From Acidimicrobiia bacterium (lineage in GTDB: Bacteria > Actinomycetota > Acidimicrobiia > Spongiisociales > Spongiisociaceae): DNA of 64,000 nt. A program made the position numbers and the translations under genes. The notes beneath the pieces were generated by a model that was given only the letters and a program-made list of their open reading frames with translations, had not been told where the DNA came from and ran no database searches. How positions within the stretch are numbered: position 1 is the first letter of the stretch; every line of letters begins with the position of its first letter. Shown piece after piece: positions 6,530 through 54,332 of the stretch. The stretch lies in contig OZ246890.1 in assembly GCA_965231815.1 (NCBI GenBank), forward strand, positions 1,799,469 through 1,863,468, given 5' to 3'.

Positions 6530-7756
6530 ATGCAAACATGCAGGCGCGAAGACCTGACCCGAGTGGTCGACCTCGCGAGAAAGGTTCTGGCCGATCTGGA
6601 TCCCGACCAGGTTCCCGGCCGCCTGGCCGGAATTGTCGCACAAACCAGACCTGCGCTAGTGATACCGATGCAAAATCGATTGATTAACGAGGTTGACGGT
6701 AACGAGTGGCTTCGCAGGCGGATCGCAGAGGAGTTCGACGGGGGGGTAGATGCGGAAGACCCGCTGGAAAGAGCGGCATATCTGTTTCTCCACCGGCCCG
6801 ATGGTTGGTCGGATGACCTACGAGAGATATCCCAACGTTCACAGCTGGCGGAGCAAGCCACCCGCATCGAAGAGATGGCCAATTGCATCAACGACCTGAA
6901 GACGGAGCTGGAAGATTGGCGGAACCAAGCCAAGCGCAACCGGAAGCTGGCTAACGAGGCGGCTGCCGAGGCTGAGGCCAATCGTCGGGTGGCGGCCGCC
7001 CGGGCCGAAGCTCTCCGGCGTCAGGATGAGGGAAGTATCACGGCGCTGCGACGGGATAATAGGGTTCTCCGGGGAGACCTGGAAGCGTCGAGAACCGAGC
7101 AACTCGCGCTACGAGGTCGTCTGGATGAGGTCCGGGCTGAGCTTCAGCGAGAACGGCGAGCACCGCGATTGATCGATCGTCCGGCGGCGCCCAGTGCATG
7201 GGCGAGTTTGGATCTCGTCGACTCTGCGCGCTTCCTCGACGATATGGTGGAATCGTTTTCACCGGAGTCGTCCTTTAGCGAAACGACCGGGTCTGTTGAA
7301 GAACCGCTCGATCTCCCATCGGGGGTCTCCCCCGATGACCGCTCTGCGATCGAATGGCTGCTGACCATCGAACGTGATTTCGTGCTGCTGGTGGACGGCT
7401 ACAACGTAGGCTATCACCTGGATAACTCACGGTTCAGCTCACCTGATATCCGCCGACGGCTGGAGAACGACATAGCCAGGTTCAAGAACCTCGCGCGGGG
7501 AAGGCCCCGGGTGGTTCTCGTTTATGACTCCGATCAGACCGGTGTGACGACGCGCGATCCCGGGCCGTCAGGTATCGAGATTCGGTTTACACATACCGGC
7601 CATAGCGCCGACGACGAGATCCTGGCGGAGGCTGCGGACCTGGGTACGGCTGCGGTGGTGGTCTCGACCGATCGTCGGGTGCGGGAGGGTGCGGAGGAGT
7701 TCGGTTCTCTCGGGTTATGGAGTGAGTCCATGGCCGAGTGGATCCGCAACTCCTGA
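6530..7756 (+). CDS. NYN/YacP-like PIN-fold nuclease-domain protein with central coiled coil
   Basis: C-terminal LLVDGYNVG ... VVLVYD ... ADDEILAEA ... VVVSTDRRVRE matches the YacP/NYN pattern; Arg/Glu-rich coiled-coil middle. Confidence 0.6.
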   Translation: MQTCRREDLTRVVDLARKVLADLDPDQVPGRLAGIVAQTRPALVIPMQNRLINEVDGNEWLRRRIAEEFDGGVDAEDPLERAAYLFLHRPDGWSDDLREISQRSQLAEQATRIEEMANCINDLKTELEDWRNQAKRNRKLANEAAAEAEANRRVAAARAEALRRQDEGSITALRRDNRVLRGDLEASRTEQLALRGRLDEVRAELQRERRAPRLIDRPAAPSAWASLDLVDSARFLDDMVESFSPESSFSETTGSVEEPLDLPSGVSPDDRSAIEWLLTIERDFVLLVDGYNVGYHLDNSRFSSPDIRRRLENDIARFKNLARGRPRVVLVYDSDQTGVTTRDPGPSGIEIRFTHTGHSADDEILAEAADLGTAAVVVSTDRRVREGAEEFGSLGLWSESMAEWIRNS

Positions 7757-7820: not shown

Positions 7821-8042
7821 TTACCCCCTAAAATACCGGTCTAGAAGGTTGACGAGCAACGTGATGACAACGCTCACAATCACCATTGATGTGATGGGAA
7901 CGAATACCGCCGACCGCTCTCCGACCCGGCGGATATCACCCGGAAGGTTGCCGAACCACGACAGCAAACCGAATCGGGTCGCCAAACCGACCAGAATAGC
8001 CACCGCGCCCGCCAGGATAAGTAGGTTGCTCAGTTGCCTCAA
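7821..8042 (-). CDS. Small membrane protein, DUF2905-like
   Basis: 73 aa, two TM helices flanking an LPGDIRR motif. Confidence 0.5.
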   Translation of the reverse strand: MRQLSNLLILAGAVAILVGLATRFGLLSWFGNLPGDIRRVGERSAVFVPITSMVIVSVVITLLVNLLDRYFRG

Positions 8043-8058
8043 TGGATCCCCCTGATGT

Positions 8059-9741
8059 TCAGCCGTCTGTCACGCATCCCAAGCTGGCTGATGACACGGT
8101 TCGGACGTACTTGGCGAGGGTTCCTCTCGTAGCCTTCGACGGGGGCGCCGTCCAGGCTGATCGCCTTCCGGCGAGTTCGGCGTCCGGTACGTGGAGGGTG
8201 ATGGTGCGGGCTGTGGCGTCGATCGAGATCCGGTCGCCCTGCTCTACCAGTGCCAGCGGGCCACCTTCCTGAGCTTCGGGGCTCACATGTCCCATGATGA
8301 ATCCATGGGACCCGCCGGAGAACCGGCCATCCGTGATCAGGGCGACGTCTTGGCCCAGTCCGGCGCCCATGATGGCCGAGGTGGGGGTGAGCATCTCCGG
8401 CATTCCCGGACCACCTTTGGGGCCCTCGTAGCGGATCAGGATCACTGAGCCGGGGGTGATCTCGCCCCGCTCGAGTGCTTCCAGCATGTCCTCCTCGCTG
8501 TCGTAGGGCAGGGCGACGCCGCTGAAGGACAGACCTTCCTTGCCGGTGATCTTGGCTACGGCGCCCTCGGGGGCGAGGTTCCCGCGGAGTATCTGGATGT
8601 GCCCTGAATCCTTGATCGGGCTATCCCAATCGGCGACCACCTGCTGACCCTCGGAGAGTGCAGGTAGGTCGGAAAGATTCTCGCGCAAGGTCCGTCCGGT
8701 GACGGTCATGCAGTCACCGTCAATGGCGCCCCGCTCCAGGAGCATGCGGAGCACCGCAGGCGTACCTCCCACCGTGTGAAGATCGGCCATTACATACTTC
8801 CCGGAGGGCTTGAGGTCGGCCAGGTAGGGAGTGCGGTCGCTGACAGCTTGGAAGTCCTCGATGTGTAGCTCCACACCGGCGGAGTGCGCCATGGCAATCA
8901 GGTGCAGGACCGCATTGGTGGAGCCGCCTAGGACCATGGTGACCGTCATGGCGTTCTCGAAAGCGGCTCGGGTCATGATGTCGCTCGGCTTGATGTCCTC
9001 CTCCATTAGCCGCCGCACCGCCGCTCCGGCCGCCAGACATTCGGCTGCCTTGCCGTCATCGAGCGCAGGCGTGGAGGAACTGTAGGGAAGGGACATGCCC
9101 AGTGTCTCGATCGCTACCGCCATCGTGTTGGCGGTGTACATCCCTCCGCAAGCGCCGGCCCCCGGGCACGCATTGCGGACGATATCGAGGCGGTCCGCCT
9201 CGTCTAGTCGTCCGGCGATGTATTCACCGTACGACTGGAAGGCCGAAACTATGTCGATCGGATTACCGTGACGGTCGGTTCCGGGCTGAATGGTTCCACC
9301 GTAGATCATCACCGACGGCCGGTTCAATCGGGACATCGCCATCACCGCTCCGGGCATGTTCTTGTCACAGCCCGGAATGGAGATGTTGGCGTCATACCAC
9401 TGGGCGCTCATTACCGTCTCGATCGAATCCGCGATCAGATCCCGTGACTGGAGCGAGTAGGACATGCCTTCGGTCCCCATCGACATGCCATCGGAGACCC
9501 CGATGGTATTGAAGCGCATGCCTACCAGCCCGGCCCGGGTAACCCCTTCCTTGACCAGGGAAGCCAGATGGTCGAGGTGCATGTTGCAGCTGTTCCCCTC
9601 GTACCACATGGAAGCGATTCCCACCTGGGCTTTGGACATGTCCTCCGTGGTGAGGCCGGATGCGTAAAGCATCGCTTGGGATCCGCCCTGCGATCTTTCC
9701 TGAGTTATACGTCTGCTGATGAGGTTGATGGGTTGTGGCAT
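8059..9741 (-). CDS. ilvD: Dihydroxy-acid dehydratase
   Basis: IlvD/EDD family N-terminus and full-length body. Confidence 0.9.
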
Positions 9742-9754
9742 GCTCCGATCTTAG

Positions 9755-9962
9755 CCCCGATTATTCATGGATGGAGGTTTGGGGGATGAGTGGAGTAGAA
9801 CCATATTCGCACCCTGACCAGGCAATACAGCTATCGGAGTTCCCCATTCGGGTCCGGTGTAGAGATTCACCTGTCGGGTGAACGGCGGGTTTCTCCTGAT
9901 ACTCGGGTTGAACAGGCGCTACATGCCTCGGTGTGTGGGAAACCTGAATAATCAGGGCTAGA
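9755..9962 (+). repeat. Interspersed repeat family B copy B1
   Basis: CCCCGATTATTCATGGATGGAGG ... GGTGTGTGGGAAACCTGAATAATCAGGGCTAG; near-identical copies at 43626 and 44975 and a reverse copy at 54099. Confidence 0.7.
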
Positions 9963-10250
9963 GCGTGCGGGGAATGGTCGGGACTGTCGCCCCGACCGTG
10001 TCGAGTAACGGCTCGGGAGAGTCTTCGGGCGGGCCGGAGTTCCCGACGGGTTACTCTGCTGGGGATGTGTACCGCACACCTGGATCGTTTTCGCTACTCC
10101 TGCCGGGGTTGTGGATGCGTGCCTATATGGTGACGTCGGTGAGAGCCGGATTCCTCCTTCAGCCCGACGTTCCTCATCCCTCATCGATCCGTCTGAAGTC
10201 TGTAGTGCCCGGGGCTAGCCTTTCCTCTGACCTTTGAGCTTTGTGAGATT

Positions 10251-13200
10251 GTGAAGGGAATGCGTGTGGTCGATATTCCCAAGTGCCCAAGATGTGACCA
10301 CGAGATGGTCTTGCGTACGGCGCGGAAAGGCGCGAGGGCCGGGAGCCGGTTTTGGGGGTGTAGCACTTTCCCGCGGTGCAGAGGAACGCGGAAGTATATC
10401 GGCAATGGTCGCGCGCATCCCCGGCGTGGTGTGAAGGTTGGGGTCGCTGGTCCGACCTCAACCTCAGATCAATCTCGCGAGACGTTCGTCCGGCGTTGCG
10501 GTTCGGGGTGTCCTGTACATGTGGCTTCCGAGGGGTTGGCTAATTCGCTGCGGAAGGCTCGTGTGGATTGGTCAGACGGCACCACATCGACCTATCGGAA
10601 GCTGGGGTGGAGCGCTGAGTACGCGACGGCGGGGGCTTCTCTACGATCGATAGGCCTCAACGGTGTGGCTGCCTTGTCCAACTGCTGGTTGGCGAGCGAC
10701 CGCGCCGGTAGTCTTCCGGATGAGGACTCTCTGCGCGTGCTGGGCGTGATGGGGAAACTCTTGCGCCGTGGCGTTGCGCCACCTCTACATCCTGAATCCG
10801 AACGGACATTGCTTAGTTCTGTCGGGCTAGACGATCTTCTCATATCCGGCCCCCTGCCGGGCGACGTGTCTCCCACACTCCGATCCGCGCACCGTGTGGA
10901 TCGAGCGGCATTCGACGCCATTCAAGGAGACCAGGTTGAGGTAGAGCGCGGCTTGGTCGAGTCTGCGGATGAGGAACGTCTGGTCAGTTGGATGATTGAG
11001 CATCACGCGTGGGCGGCACGCTGGCTGGTGCCGCAGGCCTCGTTCGACCGTTTACTACAGGCGGGAGGACATAGGAAAACGGGAAACCGTAGGTGCGACT
11101 TCCTCTGGGCGCCGCCCGGTGTTTCTCCAGTAGTGATCGAGGTAGACGGCGCTCAGCACGAACAGCAAGTGTTGGCTGATACAGAGAGGGACCGGCTCCT
11201 GCGGTCGATTGGTATTCGTACGATTCGTGTTCCTACTAGCGAGCTTCAGGATGGACACGGCCATGCCCTTGATCGGGTGTCGACCGTGGTTTCCCGTATC
11301 GGAGGACCAGCCACTAGACGGTATATGCCCGCCTCGGACACCGATGTGCGTCTGGTTTGGGGCGCGATCCAGGTCCATCGTTTCGTTCTGGGTTTGTGCG
11401 AGTCGCTACGACGGGGATTCCTACGCGGAGATACTTGGGTCGTCGAGGTCGAGGATCCCACGGGTACGGCTGTGGATCTGGTCGCCCCTTACTTGGAGAC
11501 TCTTTACGCGCTTGATCGCCTCTGGGCTACCAGTTCGGTAGCGCCTGAGCGGGTCCTGCTCACTACGCCCACCGGACCGATCCTCTTGCAGCGCACATCC
11601 GAGGGTCGATATGAACGTACAACGGTCGGGACGGAGGATCGGGCGAGAAGGCCGCAGGTGCGGATGCTTCTCCAATGCGACCTCACCTCTTGCCAGCCGA
11701 TTCCTGACGCAGATGTCACACCGACGGTTGTGCTCAGATCCACCGGTGTGCCCTTTCTGATGTCCGACCCGGGGACAGTCGCTACTAGGCGAGATCGTGT
11801 CAGCCTGGAGGGCGAAGGGGTGCGGGACGCCATGACGGCTCTCCTCCGGGCAGTGTTCGCCAAGCGCGACTTCCGTGAAGGACAGTACGAAGCGATCTGC
11901 GAGGTGATGGCGGGAAGGGACTGCGCCGTGCTTCTTCCGACCGGTGCCGGCAAGAGCCTCGTCTACCAGTTCGCCGGGCTGTTTCTTCCCGGCCGGTGTC
12001 TGGTGGTCGATCCCCTGGTAGCGCTCATCGAGGACCAAGTCGAAGGGCTACACCGCTACGGAATCGACCGTGTCGAGGGCATCACACACGACATAGTCAG
12101 CAGAGGTGACGCAAGTACAATAATGAAAGCGATCGCAGAAGCTGACGTGTACTTCATGCTGGTCGCGCCTGAACGTCTGCAGATACCGGACTTTCGCGAG
12201 ACGTTGCGGGAACTAGCGGCTGGGACACCGGTCAACCTAGCCGTTGTAGATGAAGCCCATTGCGTGTCCGAGTGGGGACATGACTATCGCCACTCGTATC
12301 TCAGCCTGGGCCGGGTCTTGCGTGTTTTGTGTGAGGACTCAGCCAAAGAGCCCCCACCGTTGCTTGCGCTCACGGGGACCGCCTCGCGGGCTGTGCTAAG
12401 AGATGTGCTGTTTCAGCTCGAGATTCGGCAGGTGTCGGACAACTCCATAGTACGACCTGAGACGTTCGACCGTCCTGAACTCAACTATCACGTAGTGTCC
12501 ATCGACGTCAACTACCGTATGCCTCGGCTTCGTAGTGAATTACGGAGGCTACCGGCTCTCTTCGGGGAGCCTAGGTCCGCGTTCTTCGAGCCGGCGGGCA
12601 AGAACACCTTCCCCGGTCTGGTCTTTGTACCGACCGTCAACGGCTTCCCTTCACTCGAGAAGATCACCAAACTGACGGAAGAGGTCATTCCCTCGGTCAG
12701 GATGTTCTCGGGTAAGGTGCCGCGGGGTTTCAATCAGACGCGGTATAAGTCCGAGAAGCGGAGGAATGCCCGTCTATTCATGAACAACTCATCTGTAGCA
12801 CTCGTGTCCACGAAAGCCTTCGGTATGGGCATCGACAAACCGGACATTCGCTGGGTGGTGCACCACATGCTTCCCGGTTCTATCGAGTCCTACTACCAGG
12901 AGGTCGGACGAGCCGGCCGTAATGGAGACCCGGCGCATTGTGTGTTGATGATTAGCGAGTACGACCCGAGTCGTAACCGACAACTGCTGGCCGAGGACCG
13001 CTCTTTGGAGTCTGCACGTGAACGGCACGGCCGCATTCGGCGGTCTGAGCGTGACGATGTGACCACTGCCCTGTTTTTCCATCTATCCAATTTCGCAGGG
13101 ATAGACACCGAAGTGTCCGTTCTCGTGGAGGTAGCGGCTGCGCTAGCGCCCGGGGCGGAACGCCGAAATATCGAGCTACCTTTCAAAGGGGATCGATCAA

Positions 13201-14102
13201 AGCGGGAACGAGCCCTTCACCGTCTCTCGATTCTGGGTGTGGTGAGCGACTATCTCGTCAGATTCAGAGCAGAGACCTTTGTAGTAACCGTTGCCGGAGT
13301 TAGGCCCGACACGGTCGGCGAAGCGTTGGAAGAGTTCGTCAGGCGTAGCCAGCCTGGACTGTTGACTGAGATCAAAGACCGCGTCGGACGGCACGACGAC
13401 CTCATGACTGCAATCGAGGGCTGTGGGCGTGAACTGATCAAGTTCGTATACCGCACCGTCGAGCAAACACGCCGCCGCTCCCTCAGAGAGATGTGGCTAG
13501 CCGCACACGCCGCCGCGCGGAGCAACAATCCCAACCGAGAGCTCCGCCGTCGAATACTCGACTACATGACCGAAGGTGATGTCACCCCTGTCATGCTCCG
13601 CCTGGCGGAAGAGTCCCATTTCAGGTTTTCCGACTGGGTATCGGCGTGGGAATCAATGGAGGGCGACTCAGACGCCCGGGAGTGGCGAGCCGCGGCAGCC
13701 CGTCTGCTCGGCTCCTACCCAACTCATCCCGGCCTGCTGGTGTCGCGGGCCCTACCCGAAGTTCTGTTGGACGACGGTGACCCGAATGAGTTCGAGTCGA
13801 ACCTGCGAGAAGCGTTTCAGTCGGCCAAGAGTGAGTATCAGGCAGACGAAGCAGACACTGTCGGCGCCGTCCGCCTGATTCTCGAACGCGTAATGGAGGA
13901 GCGCCCACTCTGGGGATCTGCCGTGGCCGGCGCGGCTTACTACGCCGGAGTGTCCGACGCAGACGATACCGACTCGTCGGCAACGACCCACACCTCGCGT
14001 GAGAGTTGGCCGATCGCGGCCTTCACTCTCGCCGAAGGCGTTGAGGTTGCTATCTCACTTACACGGGCAGTCCTGGACATCTATAGAGAGGACCGACAGT
14101 GA
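10251..14102 (+). CDS. Multidomain protein: topoisomerase-type C4 zinc finger + DUF559 (Vsr-like PD-(D/E)xK endonuclease) + RecQ-family SF2 helicase + unassigned C-terminal region
   Basis: N-terminal CPRCDHEM ... CSTFPRC; central PVVIEVDGAQHE ... DRLLRSIGIRTIRV (DUF559); helicase motifs LLPTGAGKSL, VVDEAHCVSEWGHDYR, VSTKAFGMGIDKPDIRWVVHHMLPGSIESYYQEVGRAGRNG; GTG start. Confidence 0.8.
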   Translation: MKGMRVVDIPKCPRCDHEMVLRTARKGARAGSRFWGCSTFPRCRGTRKYIGNGRAHPRRGVKVGVAGPTSTSDQSRETFVRRCGSGCPVHVASEGLANSLRKARVDWSDGTTSTYRKLGWSAEYATAGASLRSIGLNGVAALSNCWLASDRAGSLPDEDSLRVLGVMGKLLRRGVAPPLHPESERTLLSSVGLDDLLISGPLPGDVSPTLRSAHRVDRAAFDAIQGDQVEVERGLVESADEERLVSWMIEHHAWAARWLVPQASFDRLLQAGGHRKTGNRRCDFLWAPPGVSPVVIEVDGAQHEQQVLADTERDRLLRSIGIRTIRVPTSELQDGHGHALDRVSTVVSRIGGPATRRYMPASDTDVRLVWGAIQVHRFVLGLCESLRRGFLRGDTWVVEVEDPTGTAVDLVAPYLETLYALDRLWATSSVAPERVLLTTPTGPILLQRTSEGRYERTTVGTEDRARRPQVRMLLQCDLTSCQPIPDADVTPTVVLRSTGVPFLMSDPGTVATRRDRVSLEGEGVRDAMTALLRAVFAKRDFREGQYEAICEVMAGRDCAVLLPTGAGKSLVYQFAGLFLPGRCLVVDPLVALIEDQVEGLHRYGIDRVEGITHDIVSRGDASTIMKAIAEADVYFMLVAPERLQIPDFRETLRELAAGTPVNLAVVDEAHCVSEWGHDYRHSYLSLGRVLRVLCEDSAKEPPPLLALTGTASRAVLRDVLFQLEIRQVSDNSIVRPETFDRPELNYHVVSIDVNYRMPRLRSELRRLPALFGEPRSAFFEPAGKNTFPGLVFVPTVNGFPSLEKITKLTEEVIPSVRMFSGKVPRGFNQTRYKSEKRRNARLFMNNSSVALVSTKAFGMGIDKPDIRWVVHHMLPGSIESYYQEVGRAGRNGDPAHCVLMISEYDPSRNRQLLAEDRSLESARERHGRIRRSERDDVTTALFFHLSNFAGIDTEVSVLVEVAAALAPGAERRNIELPFKGDRSKRERALHRLSILGVVSDYLVRFRAETFVVTVAGVRPDTVGEALEEFVRRSQPGLLTEIKDRVGRHDDLMTAIEGCGRELIKFVYRTVEQTRRRSLREMWLAAHAAARSNNPNRELRRRILDYMTEGDVTPVMLRLAEESHFRFSDWVSAWESMEGDSDAREWRAAAARLLGSYPTHPGLLVSRALPEVLLDDGDPNEFESNLREAFQSAKSEYQADEADTVGAVRLILERVMEERPLWGSAVAGAAYYAGVSDADDTDSSATTHTSRESWPIAAFTLAEGVEVAISLTRAVLDIYREDRQ

Positions 14103-14674
14103 CCGATGGCAACATTGTCGAATTCGAAACCGTACACCGCCGCTTCGGGGAGGCCGTCGAAGCTCTCAAGCAGCTGTCCGAGCTGATGGGTGGGCTACGC
14201 CAGGCCGAAAAGGTGAAAGCGCGAACCGCGGCGACTATGTCCGACGCCTCCGATCGCCTTCGAGAAACGTCCGCAACCCTAGCGTCGTATTGCGAACTCT
14301 TGCGCTCGGCGTTGGCTTCAACGATTCAAGCCCTGCAGTCCGCCGAGAATCTAGCGACCGGGGCTGAGCTATCAGCGATCCGAACCGAGGTGGCCTCCAA
14401 TAAGGCAGCCCTTGCGCACCTAGTCGAGGCCGAAGATTCTCGCAACGTCAAGCTTGCCGACTTGGCTAACCGACAGAACACGATCGCCGACACAGTCGAG
14501 ACAATCCAGAATAGGATCGACGGAGCTCTCTCTCAGGCGCAACAATCTCGAGACAATGCCCTCTCCGAACTCACGGAAACCAAGAACCGACTCGAGATAC
14601 TCGAAATCCGCCTCAGCGGACTACCGCCCAAAATCCGCCGCAAGTACGACCTAGACAACCTTTCACCCTCCTAA
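14099..14674 (+). CDS. Coiled-coil protein, translationally coupled to the upstream helicase gene
   Basis: GTG start overlaps the upstream TGA (GTGA); 191 aa, heptad-like Ala/Leu/Glu/Arg-rich sequence, no catalytic motif recognised. Confidence 0.6.
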   Translation: MTDGNIVEFETVHRRFGEAVEALKQLSELMGGLRQAEKVKARTAATMSDASDRLRETSATLASYCELLRSALASTIQALQSAENLATGAELSAIRTEVASNKAALAHLVEAEDSRNVKLADLANRQNTIADTVETIQNRIDGALSQAQQSRDNALSELTETKNRLEILEIRLSGLPPKIRRKYDLDNLSPS

Positions 14675-14678
14675 CCCG

Positions 14679-15437
14679 ATGCTGATCGTCAGCGACGTTC
14701 ATGCCGCCTTCGCCGAGTTGGCCGCGGTGGCAGGCCTGGGAGAGCCGCTGCTGGTTTTGGGTGATCTGCTCAACTTCGTCGACTACCGCACCGGCGCCGG
14801 CATTGTTGGCGACGTATACGGGCGCGATCATGTGACGGAGTTCATCCGGAATCGCAAGAAAGGTGATTGGGATGCAAACCGACGCTTGTGGCGGAGGACG
14901 ACCGCCGGAAGGTCCGCGGAACTAGCGGCTCGAACCCGTGAGAGGGTGCTCGAGCAGTACGCAGCCGCTCGGCGTGCGCTGGACGGCGCCGACGCCTACG
15001 TAACGTTCGGGAACGTGGACTGGCCTGACGAGATGAGGGCGTGCTTGTCGAACGTCGCCCGGATAGTCGACGGTGAGGTGGTCGAGATCGAGGGTTACTC
15101 GGTGGGTTTTGCGGGCGGCGGGGTACCGACACCCGCCAACGCGCGGGGAGAGGTGTCACACGAGGCAATGGCCGAAAAGTTGGAGGGACTGGGTGCGGTC
15201 GACATACTCTGTACCCACGTAGCCCCTTCGATTGCTCCCTTGCAGCGAGACGTCATCACCGGTGTTCTGGAGCGATCGTCAACGGCGGTACTGGAGTACC
15301 TGCTCGCCTACCAACCGTCTTTCCACTACTTCGGAGACGTACACCAACCACAGGCGAACATGTGGAGGGTGGGCAGGACGCTATGCCGCAACGTGGGGTA
15401 TTTCCGCGCCACCGCCCGTCCGGTACGCCACGGCTAG
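14679..15437 (+). CDS. Calcineurin-like metallophosphoesterase
   Basis: DVH, GDLLN, GNVD, CTHVAP and GDVH metal-binding motifs; starts 5 nt after the previous stop. Confidence 0.75.
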   Translation: MLIVSDVHAAFAELAAVAGLGEPLLVLGDLLNFVDYRTGAGIVGDVYGRDHVTEFIRNRKKGDWDANRRLWRRTTAGRSAELAARTRERVLEQYAAARRALDGADAYVTFGNVDWPDEMRACLSNVARIVDGEVVEIEGYSVGFAGGGVPTPANARGEVSHEAMAEKLEGLGAVDILCTHVAPSIAPLQRDVITGVLERSSTAVLEYLLAYQPSFHYFGDVHQPQANMWRVGRTLCRNVGYFRATARPVRHG

Positions 15438-15826: not shown

Positions 15827-16258
15827 GTGGCCTTACAGCCCATGTACTTCGAGCCCCGACAGATACTGAACTCCCAAGGCTATGCCGACCCTCCCGGTCC
15901 CGATAAGGGGGTTCTTCGCACCAGGTACATCGCCTTGGTGGAGGCCCGTCTTTACGATCGCAATGCTTCTGCCTTACAGCGCCAAGGGAGGCTGGCAACC
16001 TACGCACCATACGAGGGCCAGGAAGCGATCCAGATCGGAGCGGTAGCGCAGCTCCAGCCCGCGTGGCACCCCGATCATTCCTACGGTACGTCCGCCATCC
16101 TGTCGGTGGGGCGTTCCCATCCGAGACCGGTCGTAAGGGACGGTGCGGTTGCGATCGCTCACCAGTTTCCTCTGAGCCTTTCCTACGACCACCGCATAAT
16201 CGACGGAGCCGAGGGGCGCCGGTTCATGGCAGCGGTCACCGATGCATTGGAGAGCTAG
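15827..16258 (+). pseudogene. Deletion scar of a 2-oxoacid (branched-chain keto-acid/pyruvate) dehydrogenase operon: E1-alpha N-terminal fragment fused in frame to the E2 C-terminal ~50 aa
   Basis: ARLYDRNASALQRQGRLATYAPYEGQEAIQIGA (E1-alpha TPP region) followed by AILSVGRSHPRPVVRDGAVAIAHQFPLSLSYDHRIIDGAEGRRFM (E2 catalytic C-terminus) in a 143-aa ORF. Confidence 0.6.
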
Positions 16259-18220: not shown

Positions 18221-18293
18221 GCCGGGGTAGCTCAGTCGGCAGAGCGGCTCATTCGTAATGAGCAGGTCAGGGGTTCGATTCCCCTCTCCGGCT
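18221..18293 (+). tRNA. tRNA-Thr (anticodon CGT)
   Basis: Cloverleaf folded by hand: acceptor GCCGGGG/CTCCGGC, anticodon stem GCTCA/TGAGC, loop TTCGTAA, T-arm AGGGG-TTCGATT-CCCCT. Confidence 0.9.
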
Positions 18294-18389
18294 CCGTACT
18301 ACTTCGGATTCGTCGTGATCTCGCGCCGTTTATCGTATGAATCGGCGGGGTATCAGAAGGGTGGGTGCAGTCGACCATGGCGCAGGACG

Positions 18390-43246: not shown

Positions 43247-43625
43247 TGTCCCGAGTCGGAAGTTCCGTGCACATCGCGAGTAACCACCCGGCCTGCTTCC
43301 GGCACAGACCCGGGTTAAGATCGCGAAAACCGAACTACCCGGATGGGACCCCTCTCAGTGGGACCCACCCCCGGCCGCCGCCTCCTCAGCGTCGAAACGC
43401 GTCCCGCTAACCCCTCGCCTTGCCAAACAGAGGCAAGGCAGAAGAAAACAAGCAAGATGATCCCAACCCCGGTCCGGTCGGTACCTGACCCAACCGTCGG
43501 TGCTTTACGGTTACCCACCAGTATGCAGACCGGGTATGACAGATTTCCCCGGCCGTCGGGTTACGCCCGTCGGAAAGATTTCGCGGTCTCCCGAACACAA
43601 GCGAAACAACGATTCACGACACTAG

Positions 43626-43832
43626 GCCCGATTATTCATGGATGGAGGTTTGGAGGATGAGTGGAGTAGACCATATTCGCGCCCTGACCAGGCAATACAG
43701 CTATCGGCGTTTCCCATCCCGGTCCTATTTAGAGATTCACCTATCGGGTGAACGGTGGGTAGCCCCCCAAAACTCGGGTGGAACTGGCGTAACATGCCTC
43801 GGTGTGTGGGAAACCTGAATAATCAGGGCTAG
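43626..43832 (+). repeat. Interspersed repeat family B copy B2
   Basis: Full-length B copy just downstream of the polyprenyl synthase gene. Confidence 0.7.
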
Positions 43833-44883: not shown

Positions 44884-44974
44884 TTCGTTTGCTCCGCCTC
44901 GGGAAAAGGTCTTCCCTATGCTAAAGACATGTGCATTGATCGCCACCATCGTCGGGTCGATCCACTTTGGCGTA

Positions 44975-45184
44975 ACCCCTATTTTTGATGGATGGGGGTT
45001 TGGGTATGGGTGGAGGAAGCCACAATAGCGTCCTGACCAGGCAATACACCTATCGGCGTTTCCCGTCCCGGTCCGGTGTGGAGATGCACCCGCCGGGTGA
45101 AACCGGTCGGTTCCTACTAAATAATCAGGTTGAACCGGCGATACATGCCGCGGTGTGTGGGAAACCCGAACGATCAGGGTTAAA
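44975..45184 (+). repeat. Interspersed repeat family B copy B3
   Basis: Full-length B copy between the polyprenyl synthase start and clpC. Confidence 0.7.
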
Positions 45185-45262
45185 GTCACTAATAGGAATC
45201 AGGAGGGCTTAAGCTTGTATCCTCGGAGGGGTAGAGTCATGGGTCCGGGGAGGTGTTAGGTA

Positions 45263-54098: not shown

Positions 54099-54304
54099 CT
54101 AGCCCTGATTATTCAGGTTTCCCGCACACCGAGGCATGTAACACCAGTTCCAACCCGAGTATACGGCGAAACCCACCATTCACCCGGAGGTGAATCTCTG
54201 CACCGGCCCGGGATGGGAGACACCGATAGTTGTATTGCCTGGTCAGGGGCGTGATTACGGCGTAATCGACTCATCTGTCAAACCCCCATCCATGAATAAT
54301 CGGG
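54099..54304 (-). repeat. Interspersed repeat family B copy B4 (reverse orientation)
   Basis: CTAGCCCTGATTATTCAGGTTTCCCGCACACCGAGGCATG ... CCATCCATGAATAATCGGGG. Confidence 0.7.
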
Positions 54305-54332
54305 GCTGAAGTAGGACTGATGGTTATCGTTC

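Follow-up and report, generated by a model that had tools for sequence, protein, structure and literature searches.

Hhe is a single-gene system in which a superfamily 1 (SF1) helicase (DUF4011/AAA_11/AAA_12) carries a C-terminal nuclease, and WRN is the precedent for a nuclease placed N-terminal to a RecQ core, in this case one of the DnaQ-type exonuclease fold. HheA joins its helicase to a Vsr nuclease, and the nuclease mutant E1731A loses defence (10.1101/2022.06.16.496414). In PsyrTA/RqlHI, a validated phage defence system, the small partner RqlI restrains the genotoxic RecQ-like helicase RqlH (10.1101/2022.05.11.491447). Hna, DdmD, Nhi, HmaA and Hachiman HamAB are further nuclease–helicase defence proteins (PMC11232893, PMC12278908), and DpdF is uncharacterised, with dpdEFJK described only as "related to DNA metabolism" (PMC5699537). 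Our own literature searches on the combination of RecQ with DUF559 and on DpdF domain descriptions returned nothing useful. Here we describe a locus in a 64,000-nucleotide (nt) stretch from an Acidimicrobiia bacterium (contig OZ246890.1, positions 1,799,469 to 1,863,468 of the forward strand; hereafter the window) that encodes a RecQ-type helicase with an N-terminal Vsr-like nuclease, together with a small coiled-coil partner. We lean, if only slightly, towards reading this region, 10192-14674, as a cassette of two genes that is complete in itself, moves horizontally and defends its host against phages or other invading DNA such as plasmids.

Results

A two-gene cassette forms the unit of homology

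A preliminary description of this DNA, made from its letters alone, placed at 10251-14102 one polypeptide with a zinc ribbon, a Vsr/DUF559 nuclease and a RecQ-type helicase in that order, and our analysis confirms it. That description missed the overlapping partner gene at 14099-14674 and the joint movement of both genes as a cassette, and it is the partner and this joint movement that carry most of the functional interpretation. The features discussed below are as follows.

10192-14674, plus strand: two-gene cassette, made up of a short 5' leader, the helicase–nuclease gene and the partner gene (from blastn against the related locus L007; gene pair in 21 of 25 loci)
10251-14102, plus strand: helicase–nuclease gene, 1283 amino acids (aa), an exact match in the list of open reading frames (ORFs)
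10281-10394, plus strand: topoisomerase-I-type C4 zinc ribbon, residues 11-48 (Pfam PF01396 Zn_ribbon_Top1, 35.0 bits, cut-off 32)
10548-10766, plus strand: small alpha/beta N-domain, residues ~100-172, with conserved W107, G119, W120, Y124, R132 and S133
10767-11300, plus strand: Vsr/DUF559-like (EDxHD-type) endonuclease domain, residues ~173-350, candidate catalytic residues E184, D283, E297, D299, H303 and D310/D314
11301-11825, plus strand: bridging alpha/beta domain linking nuclease and helicase, residues ~351-525, conserved family-wide
11826-12950, plus strand: RecQ-type superfamily 2 (SF2) helicase core of two RecA lobes, residues 526-900
12951-13304, plus strand: RecQ-like helical hairpin and winged-helix module with no Cys4 zinc site, residues ~901-1018, from the structural model
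13305-14099, plus strand: family-specific all-helical C-terminal domain, residues 1019-1283, with conserved SQPG, RRRSLREM and SYPxHPGLL
14099-14674, plus strand: partner gene, 191 aa, an all-helical coiled coil whose GTG start overlaps the helicase stop (GTGA)

Comparison of the window with L007 by blastn gave a single match of 4480 nt (10192-14670, 87.6% identity). Because this homology spans exactly the two genes and their leader while the flanks are unrelated, the unit is the two-gene cassette. Its borders showed only short, chance-level matches when searched for direct or inverted repeats and target duplications, and no tRNA, tmRNA or Rfam RNA adjoins it as an integration site. The sole tRNA or Rfam match in the whole window is a tRNA-Thr(CGT) at 18221-18295 on the plus strand, 3.5 kb downstream.

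The pairing itself is widespread. An ORF of 149-226 aa lies behind the large ORF, with a gap of -26 to +4 nt, in 21 of 25 related genome loci that come from Actinomycetota, Chloroflexota, Bacillota and Rhodothermales, and the pair was present in every metagenomic context inspected. The exceptions are copies broken by an insertion sequence (IS) or a frameshift, and L036, in which a 261-aa ORF starts 16 nt downstream.

Comparison with described systems

When searched against PADLOC, the helicase core matched DpdF models best (299 bits) and PsyrT at 230 bits. One DpdF profile, PDLC02868 (1078 positions), is collinear with the window protein, whose residues 292-347 align with profile positions 91-148 and residues 529-750 with 327-541, so that both have the same spacing of ~236 residues from nuclease motif to helicase; in the relative P0205 the alignment extends across the C-terminal domain as well (505-1171 onto 329-1012 of 1078). 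This DpdF subtype is the closest known architecture to the RecQ–Vsr family. The window protein nevertheless differs from DpdF in having an extra N-terminus of ~200 aa (zinc ribbon and N-domain), falls far below the DpdF equivalog NF041063 (147.4 bits against a cut-off of 550) and is encoded with a dedicated coiled-coil partner, whereas Dpd is a cluster of about ten genes. No dpdA-K or TGT-like gene occurs among 50 ORFs of the 64-kb window or in the neighbourhoods of relatives that were inspected.

Like Hhe, the window protein is a single polypeptide that joins a helicase to a Vsr-type endonuclease, but its helicase is of the SF2 RecQ type, which sets it outside that system. HheA was not among 25 of the 27 PADLOC families matched by the whole protein, nor did it appear when the N- and C-terminal parts were searched alone, and the likeness is one of functional analogy rather than homology. 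PsyrTA shares with the cassette its organization as a two-gene module of a RecQ-like helicase and a small partner. The PsyrA antitoxin, however, is DprA-like, whereas the window partner is a coiled coil with no PsyrA match, so that the pair does not belong to PsyrTA; the account of PsyrT in 10.1101/2022.05.11.491447 mentions neither a Vsr nuclease nor a zinc ribbon. With bacterial RecQ the protein has in common a core with all motifs, followed by a winged-helix module. It differs from RecQ and WRN in having no Cys4 zinc subdomain and no HRDC domain, and in belonging to a patchy, cassette-borne family, and its nuclease is a Vsr-type endonuclease where that of WRN is a DnaQ-type exonuclease. Hna, DdmD, Nhi, HmaA and Hachiman differ in helicase subfamily, nuclease family and domain order, and have no coiled-coil partner.

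The nuclease retains a Vsr-type active site

Pfam DUF559 (PF04480) matches residues 294-346 above its cut-off (25.6 against 20.6 bits), aligning only the C-terminal half of the model (positions 55-107 of 109), while MTES_1575 reached just 14.4 bits against a cut-off of 38.2 in the same scan of the helicase–nuclease protein. The nuclease domain exceeds the DUF559 match, extending over residues ~173-350 to take in the helix residue E184 and Q262, and it contains an insertion of ~70 aa between helix 1 and Q262. Its fold resembles those of I-Bth0305I, DUF559 and Vsr. A profile of the nuclease region matches 3hrl (E = 2.3e-9) with the motif residues aligned, and a profile of the whole family does so at E = 1.8e-9.

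The two strings singled out in the preliminary description, VVIEVDGAQHE (residues 294-304) and DRLLRSIGIRTIRV (residues 314-327), are present as quoted. The active site of Vsr comprises E25, D51, position 62, H64, H69 and D97, and the Vsr-type branch has diverged from the PD-(D/E)xK motif towards an E/D/H/D set with a histidine base and no lysine (PMC3239194). By the equivalences in that work, the corresponding residues of the window protein are E184, D283, E297, D299, H303 and D310/D314. When the window protein was aligned with 150 representatives sharing no more than 50% pairwise identity, ~141 sequences covered each of these positions, and 126-141 of them retain the residue.

The domain can be assigned to the DUF559/Vsr-like (EDxHD) group by its score for PF04480, its Vsr-like fold and its E...D...(E)xD..H...D residues. 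The preliminary description had proposed examining the D/E-x-K triad, and had allowed that the segment might lack catalytic residues. The active-site residues are intact, and because the nuclease keeps them that doubt falls away, but the triad is the wrong test for Vsr-type enzymes. The segment E297-V-D299-G-A-Q-H303 has no lysine at the K position and so is no classical PD-(D/E)xK site, as expected of enzymes that exchange lysine chemistry for a histidine general base (PMC3239194). The missing lysine would therefore not indicate inactivity. With the relevant residues all present, the nuclease is predicted to be catalytically competent.

A RecQ-type motor between family-specific domains

The helicase–nuclease ORF did not arise by chance, since the ratio of non-synonymous to synonymous substitution rates (dN/dS) against the L007 copy (87.6% identical) is 0.22 and at least 150 full-length homologue cluster representatives exist. 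Taken domain by domain, dN/dS against L007 is at most 0.40 throughout, with the exception of a disordered linker (0.56). Translation probably begins at ATG 10260 or GTG 10266, giving 1280 or 1278 aa, because AAGGGA precedes the latter codon and the nearest relatives are 1278-1280 aa long.

A structural model of residues 84-1283 (1200 residues), built with 56 family members, is confident (predicted local distance difference test score (pLDDT) 87.7, predicted template modelling score 0.87). It resolves six parts, from the N-domain to the helical C-terminal domain.

The N-terminal ribbon is of the topoisomerase type, as had been proposed from the sequence, and passes the threshold of PF01396, but its spacing had been misread as CxxC-x18-CxxxxC. 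The cysteines C12, C15, C37 and C43 form CxxC-x21-Cx5C, and about 60% of family representatives keep the ribbon. The N-domain that follows is modelled at a pLDDT of ~90 and had no match in the Pfam scan. Its conserved residues are invariant in a nine-sequence alignment (A1), W107 also being nearly so in alignment A2; among the 150 representatives, many show gaps or variation at these sites. The bridging domain, also modelled at a pLDDT of ~90, found no relatives in searches of Pfam, PADLOC and PDB sequences.

The helicase core contains motif 0 (FREGQ), Walker A (TGAGKS, 564-569), the DEAHCVSEWGHDYR loop (667-680) and motif VI (QEVGRAGR, 883-890), all invariant across the family. Pfam DEAD (residues 543-714) and Helicase_C (790-892) both match above gathering scores. 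The core belongs to the RecQ subfamily by NCBIfam recQ_fam TIGR00614 (240 bits against 219.8), and the motifs specific to RecQ (motif 0, the DEAHCxSxWGHDFR aromatic loop and motif VI) are likewise present. It is not an orthologue of bacterial RecQ by the equivalogs TIGR01389 (264.6 against 640.2) and PRK11057 (216.8 against 1015).

RecQ_Zn_bind, RQC and HRDC have no Pfam match in the protein, and a cysteine-free stretch from C897 to C1058 leaves it without a Cys4 zinc site. The canonical accessory module is, however, not wholly absent: in the model the core leads into a zinc-less helical and winged-helix module, and structural alignments with RecQ span it. On the strength of this module, found despite the lack of Pfam matches, the RecQ accessory fold is partly retained where the modules defined by sequence are not. 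The preliminary description had found no assignable motif in the last ~380 aa. This holds at the level of sequence, with no Pfam, PADLOC or PDB match, but not in the model, where the first ~115 aa of this segment take on the RecQ-like helical and winged-helix form. The remaining C-terminal helical domain found nothing significant in Pfam, PADLOC or PDB sequences (best PDB E value 0.025). Fold searches with the full model were dominated by helicases and gave no independent fold for either the bridging or the C-terminal domain.

A variable coiled-coil partner

The partner has an N-terminal V..RF.E motif and, in the window, a basic C-terminal tail, LPPKIRRKY. An iterative hidden Markov model (HMM) search with a conservative database size placed 23 of 28 partners in one family. 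The partners diverge fast: that of the window is 43% identical to the L001 partner, against ~55% between the helicases, and at ~42% helicase identity the figure falls to ~23%. Against L007, dN/dS for the partner is 0.30. No Pfam family reached its cut-off, DprA_N appearing only as sub-threshold noise (E = 0.22).

Of 29 partners, 7 end in a hydrophobic membrane helix and the other 22 in a short basic tail. Repeat expansions make the length of the central coiled coil variable, which suggests that partner length is under diversifying or ruler-like selection. Tandem expansions lie at 10825-11505 in L013, 10701-11285 in L030 and 10548-11333 in L036, and in the last of these a unit of ~25 aa (SLRAHVDATGERISGECNKIQEKM) recurs about four times.

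A widespread family with a patchy distribution

With the N-terminal 525 aa as query, a word-index search returned eight relatives, many of them frameshifted, which pointed to extreme rarity. An exhaustive HMMER search over 1.84 billion representatives yielded at least 150 near-full-length cluster representatives (E < 1e-149 among the matches listed), most of 1100-1350 aa and aligning nearly end to end, and a later profile search added 55 more full-length members. We therefore abandoned the idea of a unique fusion: the architecture is not singular but recurs in several phyla, in no fewer than ~140 clusters at 50% identity. The family is annotated only as "RecQ family helicase".

In a scan of one genome per species, the N-terminal module occurs in Acidimicrobiales (including sponge-symbiont lineages) and Gaiellaceae, and also in Dehalococcoidia, Caldilineaceae, Anaerolineae, Bacillota, Rhodothermales and others. 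The distribution across phyla is patchy.

The surroundings of relatives are varied. One context holds Wadjet, a caspase–helicase and an SLFN-like (SLFN/AlbA) gene; another MAD7, a HerA-like gene and a DNA methylase; another a PRTase-CE and an ORC/CDC6-like gene; and another IS21, Mu transposase, CopG and HicA genes. Fic genes adjoin some relatives. The neighbours of 17 genome loci, 116 in all, were pooled and scanned qualitatively, and contained GmrSD (3), ResIII (3), ISL3 transposases (2), AAA_21 (2), a TrwC relaxase and an N6 methylase, in addition to ordinary metabolic genes. The GmrSD-type (DUF262/DUF1524) type IV restriction enzymes come from three of the 17 loci; in L019 (11263-13107) and L023 (11331-13094), both from Chloroflexota, the first ORF past the cassette is the likely match, although the pooled scan was not ORF-resolved.

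Several copies have decayed in a manner resembling that of costly defence genes. L001 carries an IS insertion, and the gene is split in L025, L035 and L040. An internal deletion shared by L003-L005 (three assemblies, 8001-10498) has left P0023, a 658-aa protein in which residues ~101-192 are joined to ~729-end; it lacks the nuclease and the first helicase lobe, yet is still followed by the partner gene. P0023 sits between a caspase–helicase/SLFN cluster and a Wadjet (JetABCD) system.

Discussion

A helicase coupled to a nuclease is a sensible functional reading of the first gene. The preliminary description, whose interpretation is borne out in part, proposed that the helicase may deliver or license the nuclease and that the zinc finger may serve to recognise DNA. 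Under the defence interpretation its product would be the effector, an ATP-driven RecQ-type SF2 translocase or helicase, presumably moving 3'->5' on DNA as RecQ does. The zinc ribbon and the winged helix would engage DNA, the motor would translocate along it or unwind it, and the tethered nuclease would nick or cut the DNA fed to it. The product of the second gene, translationally coupled to the first, may gate, inhibit or localise this effector.

Several observations weigh against a mobile defence cassette. The window is otherwise a housekeeping region, with leuB, ilvB/C/D and genes for aminoacyl-tRNA synthetases, FtsH, Clp, pantothenate, folate, Fe-S and TrkA functions. PADLOC recognises no system in it, and its 64 kb hold no other defence genes, the PADLOC matches there being generic AAA ATPases. 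The 4.0-Mb genome of L091, ~92% identical to the window over 13 kb, has the cassette intact and syntenic between ilvD and a 252-aa gene. On this evidence the cassette behaves in the window lineage as a stably inherited chromosomal gene, although it occupies a different locus in another close relative. Defence or mobile neighbours occur in a subset of relatives, many related loci having housekeeping neighbours, and the neighbour counts are raw and qualitative. Plasmid and phage collections contained no copy of the N-terminal module; only the zinc ribbon matched there, on plasmid-borne restriction endonuclease, NERD and UvrD proteins. Some of the seemingly broken copies may also be long-read sequencing errors.

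A more elaborate version of the defence interpretation is tentative, and we would sooner expect it to fail than to hold in full. It envisages an undescribed two-component immune system in which a membrane-tethered or membrane-associating coiled-coil partner, with a length set by repeat expansions, would detect infection at the envelope and release or recruit a RecQ–Vsr nuclease–helicase to destroy incoming DNA. Such a system would occur widely among uncultured Actinomycetota and Chloroflexota, in many cases sponge symbionts, and would be an analogue of Zorya or Kiwa at the level of architecture, built on a RecQ motor.

Two rival explanations are credible. The first is a toxin–antitoxin or addiction module of the PsyrTA/RqlHI type, in which the helicase–nuclease would be genotoxic, the partner an antitoxin acting by direct binding, and phage defence a by-product of abortive infection. 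The genes are tightly coupled, with a large enzyme ahead of a small, fast-evolving partner; the PsyrT model matches the helicase core at 230 bits; RqlHI/PsyrTA provides a precedent (10.1101/2022.05.11.491447); and the frequent inactivation of the large gene suggests toxicity. We nonetheless consider this module improbable. Similarity to PsyrT does not extend beyond the generic RecQ core, no PsyrA- or DprA-like match was obtained for the partner, classical type II systems usually place the antitoxin ahead of the toxin, and the membrane anchors of seven of the 29 partners would be unusual for an antitoxin.

The second credible rival is a housekeeping enzyme of DNA repair or recombination: a lineage-specific RecQ with its own nuclease, working like WRN or by Vsr-type mismatch nicking and unwinding, with the partner as an accessory factor. 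It is hard to reconcile with a family that is rare and patchy across phyla, with the same cassette at unrelated loci in close relatives, with mobile or defence neighbours at several loci and several disrupted copies, or with the shortfall against the RecQ equivalog and the missing HRDC and zinc-binding motifs. A true RecQ-family core does fit it, as do the housekeeping context, synteny and purifying selection seen in the window and L091, and Vsr is itself a repair nuclease (PMC3239194). Taking these together, we think a repair role rather improbable.

Much less likely is an orphan or diverged DpdF, the helicase of a Dpd-like (7-deazaguanine) restriction–modification system with its modification genes elsewhere. 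DpdF models give the best defence-database matches (up to 299 bits) and PDLC02868 is collinear, but we rejected a Dpd system on the equivalog score (147 against 550) and the gene context, which has no dpdA-K or TGT-like gene in the window or the inspected neighbourhoods of relatives, and a partner that is not a Dpd protein. Least likely of all is a selfish cassette that would propagate itself by means of its EDxHD-type nuclease, as homing endonucleases do, rather than serve the host. There are no terminal repeats or target duplications, the unit is not inside a conserved host gene, intron or intein, and homing endonuclease genes do not resemble a 4.5-kb unit that includes a full helicase and a partner.

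If the defence interpretation is true, a RecQ-based nuclease–helicase system with a dedicated coiled-coil partner joins the bacterial immune repertoire. The lineages concerned (Acidimicrobiia, Gaiellales, Dehalococcoidia and Caldilineaceae, in many cases from sponge microbiomes) are poorly covered by screens centred on E. coli and Bacillus. The cassette also offers a handle on uncharacterised DpdF-type proteins, since a collinear relative that forms a minimal two-gene unit is easier to dissect. Finally, the label "RecQ family helicase" hides an intact endonuclease and could mislead the reconstruction of repair pathways in the genomes that carry it.

Other features of the window

A 252-aa ORF (14679-15437, plus strand) begins 5 nt past the partner gene and is conserved beside the cassette in L091. 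Its matches are weak, namely a sub-threshold metallophosphoesterase (E = 0.043) and PADLOC PDC-S10 (1.3e-4). We considered it as a third component and rejected it: it lies outside the L007 cassette homology, is absent from other loci and resembles metallophosphoesterases only below threshold.

A dispersed repeat of ~210 nt is present in four copies that are 80-89% identical, at 9752-9961, 43623-43832 and 44973-45185 on the plus strand and at 54099-54307 on the minus strand. Its ends are complementary (AGCCCCGATTATTCA ... TGAATAATCAGGGCT), and one copy lies in the intergenic region between ilvD and the cassette, at the same site in L091. The repeat has no Rfam match; an RNAalifold consensus gives 69 pairs, with compensatory changes in only four. 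From its sequence it looks like a miniature inverted-repeat transposable element or a structured RNA.

Farther downstream, relative to the syntenic region of L091, the window has lost ~2.7 kb (13844-16544 in L091), with the junction near 16061-16063. In L091 the missing segment holds the coding sequence of E1 alpha, E1 beta and most of E2, and the ORF at 15827-16255 aligns with no more than the final ~56 positions of the 2-oxoacid dehydrogenase E2 catalytic domain. Upstream, between ilvB and ilvD and in the same place in L091, a 408-aa protein (6530-7756, plus strand) has a C-terminal YacP-like NYN ribonuclease domain.

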